Shown here piece by piece: positions 4,309 to 56,084 of a DNA stretch of 64,000 nt. This DNA comes from an uncultured Alphaproteobacteria bacterium (lineage in GTDB: Bacteria; Pseudomonadota; Alphaproteobacteria; RF32; CAG-239). A program made the translations under genes and the position numbers. The stretch covers positions 18,819-82,818 of the forward strand of contig CAKQRZ010000001.1 in the NCBI GenBank assembly GCA_934271715.1, in the 5' to 3' direction. The stretch's first letter is position 1. Every line of letters begins with the position of its first letter. The notes under the pieces were generated by a model. That model searched no databases. It was not told the DNA's origin and saw nothing but the letters and a program-made list of their open reading frames with translations.

Positions 4309-4480
4309 GATTCTAGGTACAAGACCTAGAATGACTGGTGCTTGAGGCGCTAGCTTAGTGCCGTCTGTTATTTTAGTTTTTACTGTATTATTTCCGAAAG
4401 TGTTATTTTTTCTACCAAACCCTGCAAAAATGTGCTGAACAGCAGAAAAAGTGCCTTTAATCAGATGTTTAGGGTTTGCA

Positions 4481-4494
4481 GAGAGAGAGAGAGA
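4481..4494. repeat. (GA)7/(CT)7 dinucleotide tract between the A-module ATG and the pilin reading frame
   Basis: Direct reading: gca gagagagagagaga cc. The ATG frame reads MKNKLFKGLSLSLQTLNI* and the pilin frame is shifted by +2. Confidence 0.9.
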
Positions 4495-4553
4495 CCTTTG
4501 AATAGCTTATTTTTCATATTTCTTTCCTCTTAAATTATGTTGTTTACACTCCA

Positions 4554-8124: not shown

Positions 8125-8201
8125 GCAGGCGTAGCTCATCAGGATAGAGCGACTTCCTCCTAAGAAGTAGGCAGGCGGTTCGAGTCCGCCCGCTTGTACC
8201 A
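8125..8201 (+). tRNA. tRNA-Arg (anticodon CCT)
   Basis: Cloverleaf: D-stem GCTC/GAGC, anticodon stem ACTTC/GAAGT with loop ctCCTaa, T-arm GGCGG-TTCGAGT-CCGCC, and a 3' ACCA. The acceptor stem has two G-U pairs. Confidence 0.75.
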
Positions 8202-8365
8202 TTTAGCTTTTCCGCCCTTTCATTTAGTTGAGTTGTATATATTACCATACCATGGTTACCATGCAGTGGCTTTTTCCATTAAGGCATTTTTTATAAGCTT
8301 CATCAATTTCCGTCAATGTCATATTTATAAAATATGCAAAATCAAAGCATAGGAAAAGCCGGAAA

Positions 8366-8541
8366 TGTGTAAAAAAAACGACCGTTTAAAAGGGACAGTT
8401 TTTAGGCTGTTTTTAGTAATGTATCACGGTTTGCTGCAAAATGCAATAACATAATAATTTTGCGTTATTTTTTTCATAATTTTGCAACATTTCAGCAGCT
8501 TGTTTTGAGTGTGTAAAAATAACGGTCGTTTTTTTTACACA
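8366..8541 (+). repeat. B-module element bounded by 21-bp perfect inverted repeats (tgtgtaaaaaaaacgaccgtt ... aacggtcgttttttttacaca), copy 1
   Basis: Inverted repeats at 8366-8386 and 8521-8541. It is followed by taataggaggaataagATG and the conserved 18 codons. Similar copies lie at 26687-26862 and 55125-55300; the inverted repeats are identical in all three, while the internal segment diverges. Confidence 0.8.
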
Positions 8542-8557
8542 TAATAGGAGGAATAAG

Positions 8558-10195
8558 ATGTTGAAGAGTATGAATTTTTTAAGAGGAAAGAGCAGGGAAA
8601 GAGTAAGTGGAGGCGGCACTTCCGTTTGCAGCGTCATTCTTCGCCGGTACTCCCAGCTGGAAGTACCATGGCGGAGAATCCATAACGTCATTGCGCATGC
8701 AATGTCAGTATGCGTTGCCGTTGGCAACAAAGTCATGGATACTCGTCTGCCACAGCCTGCGGGGTGTGGCGACAAGTATGACGTTTCGGGTCGGTGCCGG
8801 GGACGAGGGGTTAGTGCATTTAGCACCTTTACTATTAAAGCAATGTCAATATTAGCATTTCTTTGCTTATTCGCAACCGCGGCGGAGGCGAAGATTTGCT
8901 TTTTGCCGGACGGCAGCTGCGGCACTAGTAAAACAACCGGATTTAAGCAGAATCCAAACGGAAGCGGATGTATGTATAAATCGGAAGCTGAAGCCCGAAA
9001 CGGCTTAGGCGCCTGCGAAACCACATATAAGCAAAACATGTGCTATTATCGGCGCTGCAAGACTGAAGACAATAATATATTTGCAGACGAGGCAAGCTGC
9101 AAAAAGAAAGCCAAAGCAGATAATTTAATCTGCGTAAGCTGCGGCGGCTGCTATAAAGTTACGCCGAAAACATGCCCGAGTGGGTACACGGCAGGCTTAA
9201 CCGCCTGCGCAGAAAAAGCAGGCTATACGGCAAGTTATTCAAGCAACGGCTATGTAGGATATAGCGTCTGCGGCAAGTGCAAATATACCATAAAATCATG
9301 TGAAAGCGGCTATACTGTGGGCTTGGCCAGCTGTCCGGAAAAACAAGGTTATACTTCTAACTATTCCAGAAACGGAGTTTCCGGCGAGCAGGTCTGCGGC
9401 AAGTGCGACTACACGGCAAAGAGCTGTGCCGGAGGTTATACAGCGGGTCTGACAAGCTGCAGCGAGCGCCAAGGCTACACAGCAAGTTTAGTCAGCAATG
9501 GCTATGCCGGGGAGTTGGCTTGCGGAAAATGCAGTTATACGGCAAAAAGCTGTGCCGGAGGTTATACAGCAGGTCTGACAAGCTGCAGCGAACGGCGCGG
9601 CTATAATGCAAGCTATGCCAGCAACGGGTATGCCGGTGAGAAAATTTGCGGAAAATGCGACTATACGGCAAGAACTTGCCCAGATGGATATTCTACAAGA
9701 TATAGCAGCGTCAGCGCCTGCGGAAAAACAGGAAGTAACGGCTGGAATTATTATACTAATGGCTATTCAGGGGAAGCTGTGTGCGGGCAATGTAAAAGTA
9801 AAGCCTGTCCTAATGGGTATACTTGTACGTATTCTAGTAATATCAAGGCTCCTTGTAATAAAAGTATGGGATGTCCAGGCGATAGTGGGTATTATATTTA
9901 TGGTGGTATATTGGAACTAGGCTGGAGTAATGGATGTTTTGAGCGAGGGTATTATGTATATGTTATCTCTAATCGTTGCGGAGACGGGGTATGTGTCAGC
10001 AAATATGCAGCACGCACATGTCCTAGTGGTACAATGTTAAGAGATAGTGTAGATAATATTTATATATATTGCCAAAATAAAAATGCTACATCTTTTTGGG
10101 ATAAATATAATTGGTCGGCAAGGGCTGCAAAAGATGCAAACGGAGATACAGTTTGTTCAGGTTCAGAAATATGTATGGAATGCTATAAAAAATAA
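8558..10195 (+). CDS. Cys-rich tandem-repeat secreted protein with a B-module N-terminal extension. The signal-peptide-like MSILAFLCLFATAAEA starts at 8822.
   Basis: The ATG at 8558 (RBS aggagg) reads the conserved MLKSMNFLRGKSRERVSGGG and runs in frame, with no stop, into a signal peptide and five roughly 42-aa repeats of the form K.C..GYTAGLTSC.E..GYTAS..SNGYAGE..CGKC.YTA. At DNA level the repeats have a 126-bp period (9416-9541 and 9542-9667 are near-identical). Confidence 0.6.
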   Translation: MLKSMNFLRGKSRERVSGGGTSVCSVILRRYSQLEVPWRRIHNVIAHAMSVCVAVGNKVMDTRLPQPAGCGDKYDVSGRCRGRGVSAFSTFTIKAMSILAFLCLFATAAEAKICFLPDGSCGTSKTTGFKQNPNGSGCMYKSEAEARNGLGACETTYKQNMCYYRRCKTEDNNIFADEASCKKKAKADNLICVSCGGCYKVTPKTCPSGYTAGLTACAEKAGYTASYSSNGYVGYSVCGKCKYTIKSCESGYTVGLASCPEKQGYTSNYSRNGVSGEQVCGKCDYTAKSCAGGYTAGLTSCSERQGYTASLVSNGYAGELACGKCSYTAKSCAGGYTAGLTSCSERRGYNASYASNGYAGEKICGKCDYTARTCPDGYSTRYSSVSACGKTGSNGWNYYTNGYSGEAVCGQCKSKACPNGYTCTYSSNIKAPCNKSMGCPGDSGYYIYGGILELGWSNGCFERGYYVYVISNRCGDGVCVSKYAARTCPSGTMLRDSVDNIYIYCQNKNATSFWDKYNWSARAAKDANGDTVCSGSEICMECYKK

Positions 10196-10250: not shown

Positions 10251-10285
10251 CTGCACTCTGCCGCACCCCAATGCGGCGGAGTGTT
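10251..10285 (+). terminator. Rho-independent terminator
   Basis: cactctgccgca-cccca-atgcggcggagtg followed by ttttgg. Confidence 0.6.
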
Positions 10286-10373: not shown

Positions 10374-12146
10374 TTATCTTTCTTTTGAGATTTGTGCATA
10401 AAGCTGCTCAAGTTCAGAAAGATATTCAGCCCCCAGATTCAAGCCTTTCTGCCAAAAATCCGGTTTTGAAGCGTCAACGCCGAAATGCGCCAAGGCTTCG
10501 CGGTAGTTTTCTACACCGCCGCGGCGCAGCATCTGCATATACTTTTCCGCGAATCCGTCTACTGTTCCCTTGAGATAAATCTCATACAGCGTATTGACTA
10601 CGCAGCAGGCAAAGCAATAGGAATAGACATAGAACGGATATTGGAAAAAGTGCAGAATTCCCGCCCACATCGGTGCTAAATCGGAAGTGTCAATGCCGTC
10701 TCCCAGATAGGCTTTCATATCCTGAAGCCACCATTTTTCAAGCTGGTCGGCCGAAACTTCTCCTTTGAGGCGTTTCTCGGCGGCATAGCTTTCAAAACAA
10801 TGAAAAGCAATCTGCCGGTAAGCGGTGGCAATCATATCTTCAAGATGTGCTGCCAGCAGGCAAAAGCGCTCTTTCGGAGTTTTGGCCTTTTTCAGCAGCA
10901 AGTTGAACACCAGCTGTTCGGCAAAAATAGAAGCCGTCTCGGCCTGAGCGCAGGCTTTGCGGCGTCCGAGTTCGCCTTGTTCTTTGCTCAAATACTCATG
11001 CACCGCGTGTCCAAGCTCGTGCGCCATAGTGATGACGCTGCCGGTAGTTCCCGTAAAGTTAAGGAAAACCATCGGCATGGCATCGCCGGCCATTTCTATG
11101 CAGTAAGCCCCGCTGTCTTTACCCTTGTAAGGATAGTAGTCAATCAAATTTTCATCAAAGAATCTTTGAGCGATGCGGGCAAATTCCGGAGAAAAAGCCG
11201 TAAATGCTTCAAGCACCAAGTCTTTGGCTTGTTCTATGGTGTAGGTTTGAGTTTCAGCCTCTGCGGCAAACGGATATGGCGCAACTCGGTCCCAGTAGGA
11301 AATCTGCTCAGCTCCGAAAGCCTTGGCTTTCAGCTTGTAATAGCGCTGTGAAACGGCGATGTTGTTGGCAAGCACCGTGTCAACCAGATTATTCAAATCG
11401 GCAGCCACAATGTTATTTTCTAACACGGATTGTTCTTCCGGATAGTCGTAGTTATGCCATTGAGAGTCAATCTGGCGTCCGCGAAGCAAAGCGTTGTAAA
11501 TCAGCGTAAAAACTGAGCGCTTTTCAGCGTATTTCTTAGACAGAGCCGCACCGGCTAAATGTCGTATATCGGCATCGGCAGAACTCAGCAGAGCCAAAGC
11601 GCCGCCCTCGGTGTATTTTTTGCCGCGGACTTTGAATGTCATCGCCGCGCGGGTTTCGTCATAAAGGCGAATCCAATACTGCGTTACGCTGTTCTCATCT
11701 TCAAACAGCTGCTGGAGCTTGGTTTCAATGGTGTGCTTCTTGAAACGGCGGATTTGCTTGAGCCAAGCAAAAGTACCGGCCGGTAGAACTGTCTGCAATT
11801 CCGTCAAATTGATATTTTCGCCGGTTTTGAGCCAGTTAACAAAAAACACCAGCTGTTTTTCCAAAGCGCCGGTTTGGTCGCAGACATTCTGATAAAACGC
11901 CGAAATTTTGCCGTCGTTCAGACTGGTGGAATGCAAAAGATAAGCATAGTCATTTACTCTGCCGGCGTCAATCTGCAGCTGAATATAGCGCTTTAAGGCT
12001 GTATCAATAGCCGGTGCAGAAAGTTCGCGCAGGCGGTATTCGTAAAAAACACGAAAATCTTTTACATCCTGCATAACTAGTTCCATAGTTTTTTCGGCCA
12101 TAGACTGAGATGCGAAAACCACATTTAAATTCCAATTTTTATTCAT
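10374..12146 (-). CDS. pepF: Oligoendopeptidase F (M3B family), paralog 1
   Basis: HELGHAVH zinc motif. Length is 590 aa. Confidence 0.8.
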   Translation of the reverse strand: MNKNWNLNVVFASQSMAEKTMELVMQDVKDFRVFYEYRLRELSAPAIDTALKRYIQLQIDAGRVNDYAYLLHSTSLNDGKISAFYQNVCDQTGALEKQLVFFVNWLKTGENINLTELQTVLPAGTFAWLKQIRRFKKHTIETKLQQLFEDENSVTQYWIRLYDETRAAMTFKVRGKKYTEGGALALLSSADADIRHLAGAALSKKYAEKRSVFTLIYNALLRGRQIDSQWHNYDYPEEQSVLENNIVAADLNNLVDTVLANNIAVSQRYYKLKAKAFGAEQISYWDRVAPYPFAAEAETQTYTIEQAKDLVLEAFTAFSPEFARIAQRFFDENLIDYYPYKGKDSGAYCIEMAGDAMPMVFLNFTGTTGSVITMAHELGHAVHEYLSKEQGELGRRKACAQAETASIFAEQLVFNLLLKKAKTPKERFCLLAAHLEDMIATAYRQIAFHCFESYAAEKRLKGEVSADQLEKWWLQDMKAYLGDGIDTSDLAPMWAGILHFFQYPFYVYSYCFACCVVNTLYEIYLKGTVDGFAEKYMQMLRRGGVENYREALAHFGVDASKPDFWQKGLNLGAEYLSELEQLYAQISKER

Positions 12147-22890: not shown

Positions 22891-23582
22891 TGGAACGCTT
22901 TTTTAAGTTATTGTACTATTATTGCTTGGGACTGCTGGTGTTTGTCACGGTTTATATGGTGGCAATGCTGGCGGCTGCGCCGAAAAACGACGCCTTAAAC
23001 CGCGGCTTTATTCCCTGCACGCGTGATTTTGTAACCAAGGTTTCGGACTGCGGACGCGGCGAACTGAGCTGTATGGCAGCCGGAATCTGGCAAGATACAA
23101 AATGCAATCTGTATGTTATTTTTGACGGGGCAGGGGCTTGGCTGCGCGGCAAACAGCCGACGCCGTGGGCAAACTATTTGTTTGAACCAAAAAGCGAAGC
23201 CGAAATTGATACCGAAAATCAATATATCGGCGTGATCAGTCAGGATGTCGGAGTTTTGGAAGCGCAGCGGCAGTTCATGGAAAATCGCCAGAAAGAGCTG
23301 GAAGAGGCTAAGCACCGCAGCTTGAATCTGGATAAAAATGTTCTGCCGGCCGATGACGCGGAGCCAAACGGCAAGTATGATACAAAAGAAGAAGCGGAAC
23401 CGGCTCAGCCGGATGAAAATTCTGATATTGACGAGGAAGCGTTTTTAGAGGATTTTGAACCGGAGGCGGAAAATGCTCAGAAAGCTGAAACTCCGGTTTC
23501 GGAAAATGAAAAAACTAAGGCTTTGCTGAAACAAAATGCTCAAAAAAGCACAGAGAAAAAAGGAGAAATAAATGACAAATAA
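22890..23582 (+). CDS. Hypothetical membrane-anchored protein with an acidic C-terminal tail
   Basis: N-terminal TM segment (LLYYYCLGLLVFVTVYMVAMLAAA) and a D/E-rich C-terminus. Confidence 0.35.
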   Translation: MERFFKLLYYYCLGLLVFVTVYMVAMLAAAPKNDALNRGFIPCTRDFVTKVSDCGRGELSCMAAGIWQDTKCNLYVIFDGAGAWLRGKQPTPWANYLFEPKSEAEIDTENQYIGVISQDVGVLEAQRQFMENRQKELEEAKHRSLNLDKNVLPADDAEPNGKYDTKEEAEPAQPDENSDIDEEAFLEDFEPEAENAQKAETPVSENEKTKALLKQNAQKSTEKKGEINDK

Positions 23583-25353
23583 AATGCCGGCCTGGGACTT
23601 AAGCGACTACTATACAAGTATTGAAGACCCGAAAATTGCTGCAGATTTGGAAGAATACCGCCAAGGCACGGAAGAATTTGCCAAACGCTATAAAGGCAGA
23701 TTGGCGGAATTGTCAGCTGAAGAATTTTTGACAGCGGCAAAAGATATTGAACGCCGCTCCAAAATCGCCAGTCGTTTGGGCGGGTTTGCCTACCTTAATA
23801 TGGTTACGCAGATGAAAAATGTGGAAGCCGTGGCGTTTTATCAGGATATTCAGGAAAAACTGACGGATTACTGCAAGCCGGCAATTTTCTTTTCGCTGGA
23901 ATTTAACGCTTTGCCGGATGCAAAAATAGACGAATGGCTGCAAAATAAAGATGTGGCGTTCTATAAATATTGGATAAAGCGTATGCGCAAGTTTAAAGAT
24001 TATGAGCTTTCGGAGCCTGTGGAAGAAATTTTGGTTGAAAAATCTTTGACTTCTTCCGAAGCTTGGGTGCGTTTGTATGAAGAAACATCTTCCCGCTTGG
24101 TGTATACGGTTGACGGTCAAGAATATAACGATGCCGAACTTTCTAAACTGATGCTGGATAAAGACCCGAAAATCCGCGAAAAAGCCGGTAAAGAGCTGAA
24201 CCGTGTTTTGAAAGAAAACGGACATCTCATGACCTTTATTTATAATATGGTGATGAAAGATAAAGCCATTGAAGATGAAAAACGTGGCTTTAAAACTCCG
24301 GTTTCTTCCCGCAACTTAAGCGAGGATGTCAGCGATGAAACAGTTGAAGTTTTGGCGCAGACCGTGAAAAAGCACTATAAAGATATTTCTGAGCGTTTTT
24401 ATAAGCTTAAGGCAAAATGGCTCGGAGTTGAAAAAATTGCCTATTGGGACCGAAACGCTCCTCTGCCGTTTGCCGATGACACCACATACAGCTGGGACGA
24501 GGCGGTGCAGATTGTGCTGAATGCCTATAAAGAATTTTCGCCGAAGCTGTACAATATCGCTAAAGATTTCTTTGACCACAACTGGATAGACGTTCCGCCT
24601 CGTGACGGCAAGCGCAGCGGCGCTTTCTGCAGCGGACCGATTAGCGATGAGCACCCTTATTTGATGCTGAATTTTGTGGGCAAGCAGAATGATGTTTTGA
24701 CTTTGGCGCATGAGCTGGGACACGGCTGCCATCATCAGCTGCGTTTGAAAAACGGCGAGCTGAATGAGCATTCGCGCATGACTTCAGAGGAAGTGGCTTC
24801 GGTGTTTGGGGAAATGATGGTGTTCCAGTCCATGCTGCGCAATTTGAAAGACGACAAAGCTAAACTGTGCCTCATTGCTTCTAAAGTCGGCGATATGATT
24901 AACACCGCCATTCGTCAGATTGCTTTTCACTTTTTTGAAACCCGCGCCCATGATGAGCGTAAAAACGGCGAGGTTTCGGAAGAGCGTCTGTGCGAAATCT
25001 GGCTGGAAGAAATGCGCGACAGTTTGGGCGAATATGTGGAAGTAACCGATGACAGCAAGCATATTTGGTCTATGGTCGGACACTTCTTCTTCCTGCCATT
25101 CTATGTTTACGCCTATTCATTTGCCGATTGTTTTGTAAACTCGTTGTATCAGGTCAGCCAATCCGGCAAGGTGGAAAATTTTGCCGACAAATATTTGGAT
25201 ATGCTTTCTAAAACTGCATTGGAAGACTATGACAAGATTTTGGCTCCGTTTGGTTTAAATCCGAACAGTCCGGATTTTTGGGAATATGGTCTATCCCTGA
25301 TTTCATCGTATATTGATATGTTGGAAGAGCTGGATAGAAAAATAGACTGGTAA
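23572..25353 (+). CDS. pepF: Oligoendopeptidase F (M3B family), paralog 2
   Basis: HELGHGCHH motif. Collinear similarity to 10374..12146. Confidence 0.8.
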   Translation: MTNKMPAWDLSDYYTSIEDPKIAADLEEYRQGTEEFAKRYKGRLAELSAEEFLTAAKDIERRSKIASRLGGFAYLNMVTQMKNVEAVAFYQDIQEKLTDYCKPAIFFSLEFNALPDAKIDEWLQNKDVAFYKYWIKRMRKFKDYELSEPVEEILVEKSLTSSEAWVRLYEETSSRLVYTVDGQEYNDAELSKLMLDKDPKIREKAGKELNRVLKENGHLMTFIYNMVMKDKAIEDEKRGFKTPVSSRNLSEDVSDETVEVLAQTVKKHYKDISERFYKLKAKWLGVEKIAYWDRNAPLPFADDTTYSWDEAVQIVLNAYKEFSPKLYNIAKDFFDHNWIDVPPRDGKRSGAFCSGPISDEHPYLMLNFVGKQNDVLTLAHELGHGCHHQLRLKNGELNEHSRMTSEEVASVFGEMMVFQSMLRNLKDDKAKLCLIASKVGDMINTAIRQIAFHFFETRAHDERKNGEVSEERLCEIWLEEMRDSLGEYVEVTDDSKHIWSMVGHFFFLPFYVYAYSFADCFVNSLYQVSQSGKVENFADKYLDMLSKTALEDYDKILAPFGLNPNSPDFWEYGLSLISSYIDMLEELDRKIDW

Positions 25354-25610: not shown

Positions 25611-26339
25611 TTAAAATGTCAATACAACGGCACAGGCATCATCTTTAGCACATCCGGAACAATATTTGTTTATATCAGATAAAGATAATTGATTAAAACA
25701 TTTTTTATCGGCACCGTTGCAATAACTATCCCCATAAAAAGCGACAGCTATAGGAAATATCAAAACATATTTTAAGGATGAGTGTAAAGGAGTTGCTATA
25801 TTTTGCACAAACTTTTCACATAAGCTATGAGAAAAATTTGCAGATACAGATTTTCCATCCTCATTTGTTACCCAGCCGCCTAGGTACATATCAAATACTA
25901 AGTCATTGCTGCGAAGGTAAATATTGAAATAATTGCCTAAATTGTCGTGTAAATATGGCCATTCAGGCGGAAGCAGATTTATATTTCTAAAAAATTCATT
26001 AAAATGTGTGCCATTTTTTTGTTTTTTTATGTATTGCAGGTGTTCTGTTATGCCAAAAAGTATATGAGAATAACCATCAATAGCTTTATTGATTTTGTAT
26101 TGCTCCATAGCTTTGGAATATCCGGCAATCCCGCCCACGCTCAACACGCCGATAATGGCCAGCACGCCAAGCATTTCTATCATACTGCGGCCGGATTGAG
26201 AAAAAGTACCATACCTGCGTCCCCAGCACCCATCATTCTTTGGTTTATCCCAAGAATCTTGTGTGAACCAGCTTTTATTTAATAATAAGGCTAATTTGTT
26301 GACTAGGTTAGAGACTCGTTGCCACAAGATTCTAGGCAC
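25611..26339 (-). CDS. Type IV pilin-like protein with an A-module 5' region. The frame is open upstream to about 26576, and the ATG at 26585-26587 is out of frame.
   Basis: ...YGTFSQSG|RSMIEMLGVLAIIGVLSVGGIAGYSKAMEQYK. The C-terminal tail is CSGCAKDDACAVVLTF. Confidence 0.75.
   Translation of the reverse strand: MPRILWQRVSNLVNKLALLLNKSWFTQDSWDKPKNDGCWGRRYGTFSQSGRSMIEMLGVLAIIGVLSVGGIAGYSKAMEQYKINKAIDGYSHILFGITEHLQYIKKQKNGTHFNEFFRNINLLPPEWPYLHDNLGNYFNIYLRSNDLVFDMYLGGWVTNEDGKSVSANFSHSLCEKFVQNIATPLHSSLKYVLIFPIAVAFYGDSYCNGADKKCFNQLSLSDINKYCSGCAKDDACAVVLTF
26164..26291. repeat. 128-bp inverted repeat, left arm. It is 127/128 identical to 27023-27150 in inverse orientation.
   Basis: The reverse complement of 26164-26291 equals 27023-27150 except for one C/T difference. 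The arm covers the pilin leader/N-terminus coding region of both divergent genes. Confidence 0.9.
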
Positions 26340-26550
26340 AAGGCCTAGAATGACAGGTACTAGAGGCGCAGACTTAGTGTTGGTTAATAGATTGCTTCGC
26401 TTTGCTCGCAGTGACGGCAGAGCAAGAGGCGAGCCTGTTAGTTTTGTTCTTAATGCGTTATTACCGAAAGTATCATTTTTTCTGCCAAATCCTGTAAAAA
26501 CGTGCTGAACGGCAGAAAAAGCGCCTTTAATCAGATGTTCAGGATTTGCA

Positions 26551-26564
26551 GAGAGAGAGAGAGA
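26551..26564. repeat. (GA)7/(CT)7 tract of the A-module
   Basis: Direct reading. The ATG frame reads MKNKQSKGLSLSLQILNI*. Confidence 0.9.
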
Positions 26565-26624
26565 CCTTTGGATTGCTTATTTTTCATCTTTCTTTCCTCT
26601 ATATTTAAGTTATTTTATACCTTT

Positions 26625-26654: not shown

Positions 26655-26686
26655 CCGTAAAATCAAAGCATTGGAAGAATCGGAAG

Positions 26687-26862
26687 TGTGTAAAAAAAAC
26701 GACCGTTTAAAATGGACAGTTTTTAGGCTGTTTTTAGTAATGTAGCAGAGGTTGTTAAAATTTGCAATAACTTTTTATATTTGCGATGTTTTTTGCGGTT
26801 TTATAAAAATTTACAGCGTCTTGTTTTGAGTGTGTAAAAATAACGGTCGTTTTTTTTACACA
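26687..26862 (+). repeat. B-module IR-bounded element, copy 2
   Basis: Inverted repeats at 26687-26707 and 26842-26862, followed by taataggaggaataagATG at 26879. Confidence 0.8.
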
Positions 26863-26878
26863 TAATAGGAGGAATAAG

Positions 26879-27760
26879 ATGTTTAAGAGTATAGAATTTT
26901 TAAGAGGAAAGAGCAGGGGGAGAGTAGGTGGATGCGGTGGACTCTCGCCTCTAGCACCAGTCATTCTAGGTCTTGTACATAGAATCCTATTGCAACAAAT
27001 CTCTAACCCAGTCAATAAATTTGCCTTATTATTAAATAAAAGCTGGTTCACACAAGATTCTTGGGATAAACCAAAGAATGATGGGTGTTGGGGACGCAGG
27101 TATGGTACTTTTTCTCAATCCGGCCGCAGTATGATAGAAATGCTTGGCGTATTAGCTATAGTAGCTGTTCTCTCAGTCGGCGGGATTGCTGGATATTCCA
27201 AAGCTATGGAAAAGTGGAAAGAAAATAAAGTCATCGGCGAATACAGTTACTTAATACAGGGAATTATAGAGCATTTGAGCGACTTTGAAAAACTGAAAGA
27301 CGAGGAAGTCCGCTATGATTTATTGCCGACCTTAGCGGCAATGAATTTGCTCCCCGGCAACTGGAAAAATACAGACGAATATGAAGGGCATAAAAATGTA
27401 TCAGATACCTTAGGCAATACTTTGTCTGTTTTCAGCCGCAGCGACAGAGTGGTTATGACTATATTGTTTGGCGCTAGTTCGGTTTCCGAAAGCGGAGATA
27501 CCGTTTCGCAAACTTTTTCCGGACAATTATGCAAAGCATTTTGGCAAAATATTTTAGTTCCCTTACATAATCAAATTTATTATGCAGGAGTTTATCGCAG
27601 TAAATATTATGAGCGTGCAAATTATTATTTTAATGATAAATATTGCGGCGGCAAAAATCAATGCTTCAGTGAAATCAAATTGAATGATATAGAAAGAATA
27701 TGCAGCGCCTGCGCTTCCGGGGAAGAATATTGCGTGCTTACTTGGGAGTTTGATTATTAG
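26879..27760 (+). CDS. Type IV pilin-like protein with a B-module N-terminal extension, in frame
   Basis: MFKSIEFLRGKSRGRVGG...(81 aa)...SQSG|RSMIEMLGVLAIVAVLSVGGIAGYSKAMEKWK. The C-terminal tail is CSACASGEEYCVLTWEFDY. Confidence 0.75.
   Translation: MFKSIEFLRGKSRGRVGGCGGLSPLAPVILGLVHRILLQQISNPVNKFALLLNKSWFTQDSWDKPKNDGCWGRRYGTFSQSGRSMIEMLGVLAIVAVLSVGGIAGYSKAMEKWKENKVIGEYSYLIQGIIEHLSDFEKLKDEEVRYDLLPTLAAMNLLPGNWKNTDEYEGHKNVSDTLGNTLSVFSRSDRVVMTILFGASSVSESGDTVSQTFSGQLCKAFWQNILVPLHNQIYYAGVYRSKYYERANYYFNDKYCGGKNQCFSEIKLNDIERICSACASGEEYCVLTWEFDY
27023..27150. repeat. 128-bp inverted repeat, right arm
   Basis: See 26164-26291. Confidence 0.9.
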
Positions 27761-36468: not shown

Positions 36469-37422
36469 ATGGCAACAGTAAATGATACAGAATTTTCGGA
36501 TATTTATATTATTCCGGATGGCACGGCCTACATTTGGGGGCGTCAGACACCAAGCGGATTGATTCAGGTTCAACCGGATGATTATGATGAATTTTTGCAA
36601 CAAGTTATGAATACATATGACGGTCATAATCCAAGTTATCAAGTAAAATTTAAAGGTTTGAACTACCGTGTTGAAAGAACCGTAACGCTGGAAGGACAGC
36701 AATACTGCGCCCGTAAAATGCCTCACTCTGTGCCGGATATTAACAAACTTGGTATAGAAGAACATTTGCTCAAATACTTAAAATCACTAAGCGGCGCTCC
36801 CGGACTTATTTTGCTTGCCGGTACAACCGGTTCCGGTAAAACCACCACTCTATCAGCTTTGCTGCGTGAATTTTTGATTCGCGACGGCGGCTATGCTTTT
36901 ACGCTGGAAGACCCGGTGGAAATGCCGCTGGACGGCACTTATCATACGGTAAACGGCGAGCTTGGCATTTGCAAACAGATGACGCCTCCGGGAGGTTCTT
37001 GGGAAGCCGGTCTGAAATCAATGCTGCGTTCTAAGCCGCGTTATGTATATCTGGGTGAGATTCGTGACCCTGAAATTGCCTCTGAAGCTTTGCGTGCAGC
37101 TATTTCAGGCCACCTTGTTATGTCCACAATTCACGCCAGCACCGTTACTGATGCTATTCAGTCTATTGTAAAATACGCCGCGGCAACCGGTATTTCCGAA
37201 GAAATGGCCTATGACTTGGTGGGCAACGGTATTTTGGCGGTGCTGCACCAAAGCTTGGTCGGCGTTCCTAAGCGCGCTAAAATTGAATATGTGTTTGCTA
37301 ATCCGGACGGCTCTAAAGGCGACCAAGTGCGCGGTATTATCAAAAGCGGCAAGATGAACTTGTCTACCACGATTGAAACTCAGCGCATTCGTTTGTCACG
37401 CGGCGTGCCGTTGTTTGAATAA
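36469..37422 (+). CDS. PilT/PilU-family secretion ATPase (type IV pilus retraction ATPase-like), short form
   Basis: Walker A GTTGSGKTTT, Asp box TLEDPVE, Walker B YVYLGEIRD and His box HLVMSTIHA. At 317 aa it is shorter than canonical PilT. Confidence 0.65.
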   Translation: MATVNDTEFSDIYIIPDGTAYIWGRQTPSGLIQVQPDDYDEFLQQVMNTYDGHNPSYQVKFKGLNYRVERTVTLEGQQYCARKMPHSVPDINKLGIEEHLLKYLKSLSGAPGLILLAGTTGSGKTTTLSALLREFLIRDGGYAFTLEDPVEMPLDGTYHTVNGELGICKQMTPPGGSWEAGLKSMLRSKPRYVYLGEIRDPEIASEALRAAISGHLVMSTIHASTVTDAIQSIVKYAAATGISEEMAYDLVGNGILAVLHQSLVGVPKRAKIEYVFANPDGSKGDQVRGIIKSGKMNLSTTIETQRIRLSRGVPLFE

Positions 37423-38890: not shown

Positions 38891-39029
38891 ACCCTCTCCC
38901 TCAAGGGGCGAGGTTGTTAGTTTACTTCTTAATGCGTTATTACCGAAAGTGTTATTTTTTCTGCCAAACTCTGTAAAAACGTACTGAACGGCAGAAAAAG
39001 CGCCTTTAATCAGATGTTCAGGATTTGCA

Positions 39030-45929: not shown

Positions 45930-46056
45930 TCCAGAACCCTTTATAGAGTAGCTACTGAATGTGTTTTTTCCGAATGTGTGATTTTTTGCGCCGAACTCTG
46001 CAGAAACACGCTGAGCGGCGAAAAATGCGCCTTTAATCAGATGTTTAGGATTTGCA

Positions 46057-46070
46057 GAGAGAGAGAGAGA
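46057..46070. repeat. (GA)7/(CT)7 tract of an A-module
   Basis: Direct reading. The ATG frame reads MKNKLFKGLSLSLQILNI*. The pilin frame reads ...SLSLSANPKHLIKGAFFAAQRVSAEFG... Confidence 0.9.
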
Positions 46071-46251
46071 CCTTTGAATAGCTTATTTTTCATCTTTCTT
46101 TCCTCTTATTTTAAGTTAACTACGACATTTATTTTAACTAAATAAAACCGGAAAGTAAAGATAATTTTGGTATCGTCATGCGTTGTTTTAAGTGTCAGTA
46201 AAAACAGTAAAAGCCTGTCTTTTATAAGACAGGCTTTTAAAAAGGATTTGT

Positions 46252-54804: not shown

Positions 54805-54988
54805 ACTAGGCCCTGTGCCTAGTATCTTGTGGCACCAAGGGCGGTGTAATCCATCGCCCCGTGAGGGAGAGGTTATTATTTTTGTTCTTAATGCGTTATT
54901 TCCGAAAGTATCATTTTTTCTGCCAAACCCTGCAAAAACGTGCTGAACAGCAGAAAAAGTGCCTTTAATCAGATGTTCAGGATTTGCA

Positions 54989-55002
54989 GAGAGAGAGAGA
55001 GA
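54989..55002. repeat. (GA)7/(CT)7 tract of an A-module
   Basis: Direct reading. Confidence 0.9.
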
Positions 55003-55062
55003 CCTTTGCTTAGCTTATTTTTCATCTTTCTTTCCTCTTATTTTAAGTTAATTTACATCTTT

Positions 55063-55092: not shown

Positions 55093-55124
55093 CCGTAAAA
55101 TCAAAGCGTTGGAAGAGGCGGAAG

Positions 55125-55300
55125 TGTGTAAAAAAAACGACCGTTTAAAAGGGACAGTTTTTAGGCTGTTTTTAGTAATGTAACAGAGGTTGCTAAAATT
55201 TGCAATAACTTTTTATATTTGCGATGTTTTTTGCAGATTTGTGAGACTTTTCAGCGTCTTGTTTATAGTGTGTAAAAATAACGGTCGTTTTTTTTACACA
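55125..55300 (+). repeat. B-module IR-bounded element, copy 3
   Basis: Inverted repeats at 55125-55145 and 55280-55300. An internal putative promoter TTGCTA-N18-TATATT lies at 55209-55238. Confidence 0.8.
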
Positions 55301-55316
55301 TAATAGGAGGAATAAG

Positions 55317-56084
55317 ATGTTGAAGAGTATAGAATTTTTAAGAGGAAAGAGCAGGGGAAGAGTAGGTGGATTGCTTCGCTGCACTCGCAATGACGGTGCA
55401 GGTAACGGCGAGGGATTGCACCGCCCTGGGTGCGACAAGATCCTAGGCACAGACTGTGCGTCACGGCCTAGGATGACTGGTGGCAGAGGCGCAAATTACT
55501 TTGGCCGCAGTATGATAGAAATGCTGGGAGTTCTCGCAATTATCGGAGTGCTGAGTGTCGGCGGAATTGCCGGATATTCTAAAGCTATGATGATGTGGAA
55601 AGTTGATAAATGGAGTGCCGGGTTAATTCAAATGATGCAGGAAGCGCAAACTCTGTATTTGAATCAAAAATCATTCGGCGATACTGTGAAAATTATCACT
55701 CCTCAGCTGGTAGATACCGGAGTTATTCCGCAGGGAATGCTGGATGAAAATTACCGCGATATGTTCGGCAATCGGCTTACTGTTTTAACTCGTTATTGGG
55801 ATGTGTTTGGACTTCGCCTGAATGTTTATCATGAAATGCCTGCCGGTAAAGACGCGGTGGAATGCTGTAAAAAGCTATATGAGATGGGACAGCAGTTTCC
55901 CAGCAACTGGGTAGTAGTAACTGAAAATTTCGGCTATTCAGTCTGCGGCAGAGCGGCGCCGGATAGTTATGTGCAGGCGATGGGCTGTCAGCCTTATAGT
56001 TTAGCTAAGGTCGCAGAACTGTGCAAAAATTGCGAAACCAATAACTGCAATATAATATTTTTATTGGATAATACTAAATATTAA
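55317..56084 (+). CDS. Type IV pilin-like protein with a B-module N-terminal extension
   Basis: MLKSIEFLRGKSRGRVGG...RPRMTGGRGANYFG|RSMIEMLGVLAIIGVLSVGGIAGYSKAMMMWK. The C-terminal tail is CKNCETNNCNIIFLLDNTKY. Confidence 0.75.
   Translation: MLKSIEFLRGKSRGRVGGLLRCTRNDGAGNGEGLHRPGCDKILGTDCASRPRMTGGRGANYFGRSMIEMLGVLAIIGVLSVGGIAGYSKAMMMWKVDKWSAGLIQMMQEAQTLYLNQKSFGDTVKIITPQLVDTGVIPQGMLDENYRDMFGNRLTVLTRYWDVFGLRLNVYHEMPAGKDAVECCKKLYEMGQQFPSNWVVVTENFGYSVCGRAAPDSYVQAMGCQPYSLAKVAELCKNCETNNCNIIFLLDNTKY

Follow-up and report, generated by a model that had tools for sequence, protein, structure and literature searches.

In E. coli fimS, Salmonella hin/hix and the Mpi promoters of Bacteroides fragilis, a short promoter-bearing segment bounded by inverted repeats (IRs) lies upstream of genes for surface structures. 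The best-documented invertons are those of Bacteroidota, Akkermansia and Firmicutes. Neisseria opa genes carry CTCTT repeats that act as a slipped-strand translational switch in the leader peptide, and Giardia VSPs and furin-like repeats consist of tandem Cys-rich CxxC units of variable number, in a variable surface repertoire. The inverton groups of Bacteroides occur in multiple copies per genome with the same IR (PMC11892184, PMC11602134). On surface proteins, the ESPR is an N-terminal extension that precedes a classical n-h-c signal peptide (PMC2805444, PMC3153244), and Rickettsia palindromic elements are palindromic units of about 100-150 bp that lie in frame within alphaproteobacterial coding genes and are tolerated as extra peptide (PMC10969869).

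The locus analysed here lies in a window of 64,000 nucleotides (the whole stretch of DNA that was analysed), in which chromosomal housekeeping genes are mixed with pilin-like genes. The open reading frame at 8558-10195 on the forward strand is present as an earlier note on this DNA had described it; it is real, spans 545 residues and codes for a Cys-rich repeat protein. A tRNA-Arg gene (8125-8201) lies upstream and a terminator-like hairpin (10253-10284) downstream. A contig from a Hadza gut metagenome carries a gene for exactly this protein, and the named relatives of the Cys-rich protein, like those of ArgRS (78-83% identity), are all labelled "MAG: Alphaproteobacteria bacterium". Two M3-family oligopeptidase paralogs occur in the window (10374-12146 and 23572-25353), one of them directly downstream of the Cys-rich gene, an adjacency kept in loci L023 and L024. 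A PilT/PilU-like secretion ATPase of the T2SSE family (36469-37422), which scores far under the equivalog cut-offs, is the sole pilus-machinery gene seen within the window.

How does this locus compare with the systems described above? It shares with the Bacteroides inverton groups several module copies that have one IR in common, observed in both orientations; it differs from known invertons in its host, an uncultured gut alphaproteobacterium, and in the fusion of the switch to a shared Shine-Dalgarno (SD) sequence, ATG and leader-peptide cassette. We could assign the 21-bp IR (core AAACG-AC/GT-CGTT) to no published motif; the core may resemble the B. fragilis consensus. As with the ESPR of autotransporters and two-partner-secretion proteins, an extension precedes an n-h-c signal peptide, but the leader here is much longer and is assembled from palindromic cassettes that can replace one another, where the ESPR is a single conserved motif, and a Pfam search of the window protein for the ESPR motif gave no family at E <= 0.1. 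Rickettsia palindromic elements are the closest precedent for the cassette, which is likewise palindromic and in frame; they are dispersed in unrelated genes, however, whereas the cassette units are confined to leaders, and the likeness is one of description. The likeness to opa belongs to the (CT)n tract of a sister module, not to the Cys-rich gene, and sets a dinucleotide against a pentamer, while that to Giardia VSPs and furin-like repeats is an analogy only, the protein here being bacterial and without a Pfam, PDB sequence or fold match. With a probability of roughly 70%, we read the gene as encoding a phase-variable surface protein: a Sec-exported, disulfide-rich repeat protein under the control of a portable inverton module and equipped with a cassette-extended signal peptide.

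A 134-bp segment found in both orientations

A module of about 275 nt, the B-module, occurs three times in the window (8338-8611, 26659-26932 and 55097-55370), where it leads into the Cys-rich gene and two pilin-like genes. That one cassette is common to pilin-like genes and a non-pilin secreted repeat protein had been recognised in the earlier note and stands; the invertibility of the module had been missed. Within the module, a pair of IRs 134 nt apart is followed by AGGAGG and then by the ATG. Ahead of the Cys-rich gene its parts are:

8338-8365, no strand: left flank of the module, conserved, outside the inverted repeat (alignment of the three window copies and MAG copies)
8366-8386, no strand: left inverted repeat (IRL), TGTGTAAAAAAAACGACCGTT, perfect 21-bp reverse complement of 8521-8541
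8387-8520, no strand: invertible 134-bp segment, reversed in L022 and forward in L023, both 100% identical
8418-8446, reverse strand: promoter candidate, TTGCAT (8446-8441), 17 nt, TGn-TACATT (8423-8418), position and architecture conserved in 17 of 17 distinct interiors
8431-8458, forward strand: weaker promoter candidate, TTGCTG-16-AATAAT, among the best forward matches, scores within the shuffle range
8521-8541, no strand: right inverted repeat (IRR), AACGGTCGTTTTTTTTACACA, perfect 21-bp partner of IRL
8546-8551, forward strand: Shine-Dalgarno AGGAGG, 6 nt before the ATG
8558-8611, forward strand: start codon and 18 module codons, MLKSMNFLRGKSRERVSG, positively charged n-region, conserved in all module copies

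Read directly from the sequence, IRR and the preceding GTGTGTAAAAAT make up a site that is nearly palindromic around a central GT, which is AC in IRL. Rfam returned tRNAs alone at gathering thresholds and nothing credible for the module at E <= 1, and a riboswitch or known RNA in the module was rejected on this outcome.

The 134-bp segment between the perfect 21-bp IRs is an inverton, and both of its orientations occur in nature before near-orthologous genes, with the breakpoints at the IRs. The reverse complement of window 8387-8520 is matched at 100% identity by the interior of L022, and the IRs and the SD/ATG flank are identical to those of the window; this locus sits upstream of P0007, which is 92% identical to the window protein and has the same module N-terminus. 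L023 (P0001), where an M3 peptidase gene is the neighbour just as it is in the window, carries the segment in forward orientation at 100% identity. The other flipped copy, L019, lies upstream of the family member P0037. Its interior is 91% identical to the window segment when reversed and 50% when forward, and 87% identical to the reverse complement of L020 as against 28% in the same sense; the right flanks are homologous, so that on homologous flanks L020 and L021 are forward and L019 is reversed. Because L019 lies within a 43-kb contig assembled at k = 141, a 21-bp repeat would be unable to yield its flip as an artefact.

Among 21 complete copies, 19 have the orientation of the window and two are flipped. 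The initial 13 copies examined were all in one orientation, and a strict search of JGI metagenomes for the flipped junction, with a pattern that required the TAATAGG flank, gave 0 matches against 11 orientation-neutral ones; the flipped copies were recovered through protein-anchored loci from ENA assemblies. In a scan of species-representative genomes, a single MAG carried exact module copies (n = 3), all window-like. The contigs of this MAG (CAVKTH01; L002-L004) are titled 'Bacteroidaceae bacterium', whereas housekeeping genes in the window find their matches in Alphaproteobacteria MAGs, and the title is probably a labelling or binning problem. Contigs often end at or inside the module (L022:1-35, L024:1-100, L025:1-24, L013, L014, L008 and L003), which mixed orientations or a multi-copy module would explain equally well.

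Could the flipped copies be rare, fixed rearrangements between short IRs that have another role, as an operator or RNA stem, rather than the products of a programmed switch? The small share of flipped copies would fit such a history, as would the gene tables of the 64-kb window and of every fetched locus, in which no recombinase gene was found, and transcription from upstream would allow the IRs to pair as an RNA stem of 22 bp. The flipped segment of L022, however, is 100% identical to that of the window, so the inversion must be very recent; the IRs are invariant in all copies examined despite a divergence of 20-25% between interiors; two independent lineages have their breakpoints precisely at the IRs; and 21 bp is short for inversion driven by RecA. 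We consider fixed rearrangement unlikely and retain a programmed inverton, whose recombinase may be encoded elsewhere. Mpi of B. fragilis is encoded away from the promoters that it controls.

Which orientation would be the ON state? The reverse-strand candidate follows the consensus TTGCA(A/T)-17-TGn-TA(C/G/T)A(T/C)T, with variation at -10 positions 3 and 5 only and with TTGCAATAAC invariant. On the forward strand the best matches move among five positions between copies, and none passed in a promoter scan; scores on either strand were not above shuffled controls. In the state found in the window, the reverse-strand candidate is directed away from the Cys-rich gene. Since this positionally conserved candidate faces away from the gene, the window copy is probably phase-OFF, an assignment that we hold with somewhat better than even confidence, positional conservation being the one guide to the ON orientation. 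Inversion of the 134-bp segment would then turn transcription ON and OFF reversibly.

At L017:3809-4003, an IR-flanked module with GAGGAGG and ATG drives P0013, whose coding sequence opens directly with a plain signal peptide (MFNYLKKYNIF...). As P0013 lacks the module codons, the portable unit need not extend past the ATG and can do without the 18 module codons.

Translation start and the palindromic leader

Between the module codons and the mature protein lie two further elements:

8612-8842, forward strand: in-frame palindromic leader cassette, codons 19-95 (frame, fold and recurrence in family leaders)
8843-8890, forward strand: signal-peptide h- and c-regions, MSILAFLCLFATAAEA, residues 96-111, with predicted cleavage AEA↓K (hydropathy maximum of the N-terminal 130 aa)

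Comparison of the copies makes the module ATG (8558) the almost certain start of translation. The earlier note had left the choice between this ATG and an internal start at 8822, with an extension of 86 aa; position 8822 belongs to an AGC codon, the Met of the signal peptide, residue 96, begins at nt 8843, which makes the extension 95 aa long, and the comparative data favour the module ATG. The AGGAGG before 8558 is the only SD-like motif ahead of any in-frame ATG, GTG or TTG in the leader. Within the window leader (8612-8842), frame 0 has 0 stops, as against 5 and 5 in the other forward frames. We translated the complete copies from the module ATG without a gene caller and looked for a downstream landmark, the pilin G↓RSMIE or AEA↓KICF: frame 0 was stop-free and in phase with the landmark in 13 of 14, across leaders of 96-609 nt, whereas the other two forward frames had 1-19 stops. 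The exception, L010, is a module-driven pilin leader on the minus strand with a TGA point-mutation stop and a frameshift after the module ATG; it is a decayed leader copy and not evidence against translation.

Alternatively, the extension might be an untranslated, structured 5' leader, with translation from the internal ATG at 8843. This ATG does stand at the start of the hydrophobic core, and 8612-8842 is highly structured as RNA, folding as a nested palindrome of -95.9 kcal/mol (z = -3.8). Selection on the cassette could be read in the same way: its dS is low (0.10-0.11, with dN/dS of 0.26-0.49) beside that of the mature part (0.24-0.32, with dN/dS of 0.07-0.08), and this combination of dN/dS and low dS points to nucleotide-level constraint or homogenisation and not to a conserved peptide function. 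Position 8843 is, however, without an SD sequence, and a start there would leave an n-region of 'MS' without positive charge; an untranslated leader also sits badly with a frame 0 that is specifically open and in phase in nearly all copies, and with homologs that lack a Met at that position. Met does not occur within 35 residues of the cleavage site in P0010, P0030, P0021 or P0025; of these, P0010 (locus L018) and P0030 (L020) also offer no alternative start with an SD sequence before it. An untranslated leader is, in our estimation, very improbable, and we take the module ATG as the start in what follows.

What, then, is the extension? In P0037 the module peptide is joined straight to the hydrophobic core, MFRNINFLREKSRVRV-TVLAIVCLFSTMAEA↓, to give an ordinary 31-aa signal peptide. 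This fusion identifies the module peptide as the n-region and codons 19-95 as an insertion between the n-region and the h-region. The 18 module codons would accordingly supply the positively charged n-region of the signal peptide, with codons 19-95 placed between it and the hydrophobic core. The leader measures 111 aa here and reaches about 150 aa in Cys-rich relatives and about 200 aa in pilin paralogs; to our knowledge, a signal peptide of 111 aa is longer than documented extended signal peptides.

Sub-units of the cassette recur in other leaders, are duplicated in P0003 and P0004, and are substituted by other units in P0010 and P0030. Within 191 kb of related sequence, these units are a feature of leaders of this gene family alone; of 594 BLAST matches, 533 fall in family leaders, and most of the others are truncated leaders at contig ends. 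A reading of the cassette as a dispersed REP or MITE element was rejected because its units are restricted to leaders.

Homologs have mosaic 5' ends. In P0019 the signal peptide of the Cys-rich family follows a pilin-like remnant, GRSMIGKL, P0012 uses a different start module (MYKNLEYV...), and the 5' end of P0010 is a mosaic as well, a pattern that suggests frequent recombination within leaders. We speculate that the long leaders are functional, the cassettes serving either as recombination handles through which phase-variation modules are exchanged or as a cytoplasmic regulatory or targeting domain of up to about 200 aa; this is a tentative proposal, which we think has a minority chance of being correct. 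As recombination handles, the cassettes would allow the inverton and dinucleotide-repeat modules to be swapped among surface-protein genes with Sec and prepilin signals alike, and the mosaics P0010, P0012, P0019 and P0018 agree with this idea.

The Cys-rich repeat protein and its predicted export

By inspection, the ORF has the features of a Sec (signal peptidase I) signal peptide: n-, h- and c-regions followed by a conserved mature N-terminus. Hydropathy peaks at residues 96-108, AEA occupies residues 109-111, and the leader has a net charge of +11; cleavage is predicted between A111 and K112 (nt 8891), ahead of the conserved KICFLPD. Relatives with unrelated, ordinary signal peptides of 20-32 aa have the same AxA↓KICFLPD junction, and this junction after plain signal peptides suggests that the family is Sec-exported. 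It had been argued in the earlier note that a signal peptide made internal by the extension would lose its function; in this gene family an N-terminal extension is instead the norm. The prepilin class III signal (G↓xxxxE followed by a hydrophobic helix) is absent from the Cys-rich ORF.

It is conceivable that the hydrophobic segment is an uncleaved signal anchor, which would make the product a type II inner-membrane protein with a cytoplasmic leader of about 95 aa and a periplasmic Cys-rich domain. A very long pre-sequence with such a net positive charge has the topology typical of N-in anchors. The canonical AxA, on the other hand, stands right before a strictly conserved mature N-terminus, including in the relatives with unrelated ordinary signal peptides, while close relatives have exchanged or duplicated leader cassettes or none at all, and amino-acid constraint on the cassettes is weaker, which argues against a functional cytoplasmic domain. 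We regard an anchor as improbable and a cleaved Sec signal peptide as the better account. The long n-region would stay in the cytoplasm, Sec would be engaged by the core (residues 96-111), and cleavage at AEA↓K by signal peptidase I would release a protein of 434 aa in which an N-domain is followed by 4+1 four-Cys beta-hairpin units and then by a variable head. The corresponding features are:

8891-9163, forward strand: family-defining N-domain, KICFLPDGSCGT...CYKVT, conserved across homologs
9164-9667, forward strand: four type I units of 42 aa with four Cys, C-x2-GYT-x-G-x3-C ... CGKC (in-register cutting, TRF, AF2)
9668-9793, forward strand: one type II unit, CPDGYSTRYSSVSACGKTGSNGWNYYTNGYSGEAVCGQC, a subtype apart from the four others (in-register identity about 20%)
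9794-10195, forward strand: variable C-terminal Cys-rich 'head' and stop codon, differing among relatives
10253-10284, forward strand: intrinsic terminator-like hairpin with a 13-bp stem, 8 GC pairs, then a T-run

The mature part contains 42 Cys, an even number (9.7%). Where five units had been counted before, we find four clear ones (9164-9667, 58-64% DNA identity) and one that is divergent (9668-9793). TRF reports a period of 126 with 2.2 copies and 80% matches at 9395-9671. Units 3 and 4, previously called near-identical in DNA, are 81% identical in DNA and 83% in protein, their codon differences being 9 synonymous and 7 non-synonymous. The expected variability of repeat number is borne out among relatives, which have 0, 1, 3, 4 or 5 type I units. 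The family architecture consists of the N-domain, type I units (0-5), type II units (0-3) and a variable head, and the C-terminus is swapped between members: P0007 and P0008 have C-termini unrelated to the head found here, and P0018 and P0022 have a pilin-type head, that of P0018 matching the window pilin at E = 3e-14.

AlphaFold2 (AF2) predicts every unit to be a long beta-hairpin (pLDDT 85-94 in the repeats, mean 79.5), with confidence below 50 for mature residues 1-55. Searches with the Cys-rich protein gave no match in Pfam (at E <= 0.1) or NCBIfam, and none in the PDB by sequence or fold. The family is small, with 199 clusters at 50% identity among 1.84 billion representatives. Two large remote members, P0245 and P0260, are autotransporters whose passengers are built from the type II subtype and whose beta-domain scores 63 bits against a cut-off of 26; the C-terminal beta-barrel PF03797 is absent from the window protein. 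The occurrence of the unit in autotransporter passengers supports its display at the surface, and export of the family is supported by the plain signal peptides of relatives, by the autotransporter members, by the even Cys count and by the strong constraint on the mature part.

A sister module, pilin-like neighbours and a proposed surface repertoire

The leader of the B-module also precedes class III (prepilin) signals: two sister module-driven genes have the signal G↓RSMIEMLGVLAI, with N_methyl and TIGR02532 matches below cut-off. The B-module inverton is often placed back-to-back with a second switch of a different type. Copies of this A-module lie on the minus strand at 4480-4517, 26550-26587, 46056-46093 and 54988-55025, with a degenerate copy near 39029, and consist of a promoter-like TTGACT-17-TAGAAT, an SD sequence, ATGAAAAATAAG and a leader ORF that contains a (CT)n tract. 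Read-through into a pilin, of 281-429 aa, takes place only at n = 6 or 9, whereas n = 7 or 8 leads to a stop after 16-18 codons; since the A-module reaches the pilin in one (CT)n frame only, read-through from the module ATG is the expression route of these genes. All four copies in the window are at n = 7, with a stop after 18 codons, and one A-module locus differs across samples, with n = 7 in L020 and n = 6 in L021. From its sequence, the pattern is as expected for slipped-strand translational phase variation. We also observed inverted repeats of 285 nt (26084-26368 and 26946-27230, 86% complementary), which derive from the leaders and N-termini of divergent pilin genes and flank a 577-bp A+B control region; they could support a larger inversion that swaps the pairing of modules and genes.

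We propose that the Cys-rich protein is a phase-variable surface or adhesive protein that would belong to the same repertoire as the neighbouring pilin-like genes, a link drawn because the module is shared and because P0018 carries a pilin-type head. The locus provides direct evidence for an inverton family in uncultured gut Alphaproteobacteria, with a start codon and leader cassette that serve both pilin-like and Sec-secreted proteins, and a putative slipped-strand switch lies back-to-back with the inverton. A second outcome is a previously unannotated repeat, a four-Cys beta-hairpin, shared by secreted proteins and autotransporter passengers. The in-frame palindromic cassettes offer a testable case of n-regions enlarged to 60-200 residues, which challenge both signal-peptide prediction and the calling of gene starts in metagenomes. 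If the cassettes do act as recombination handles or as a cytoplasmic domain, they would represent a new logic for building a variable surface repertoire.
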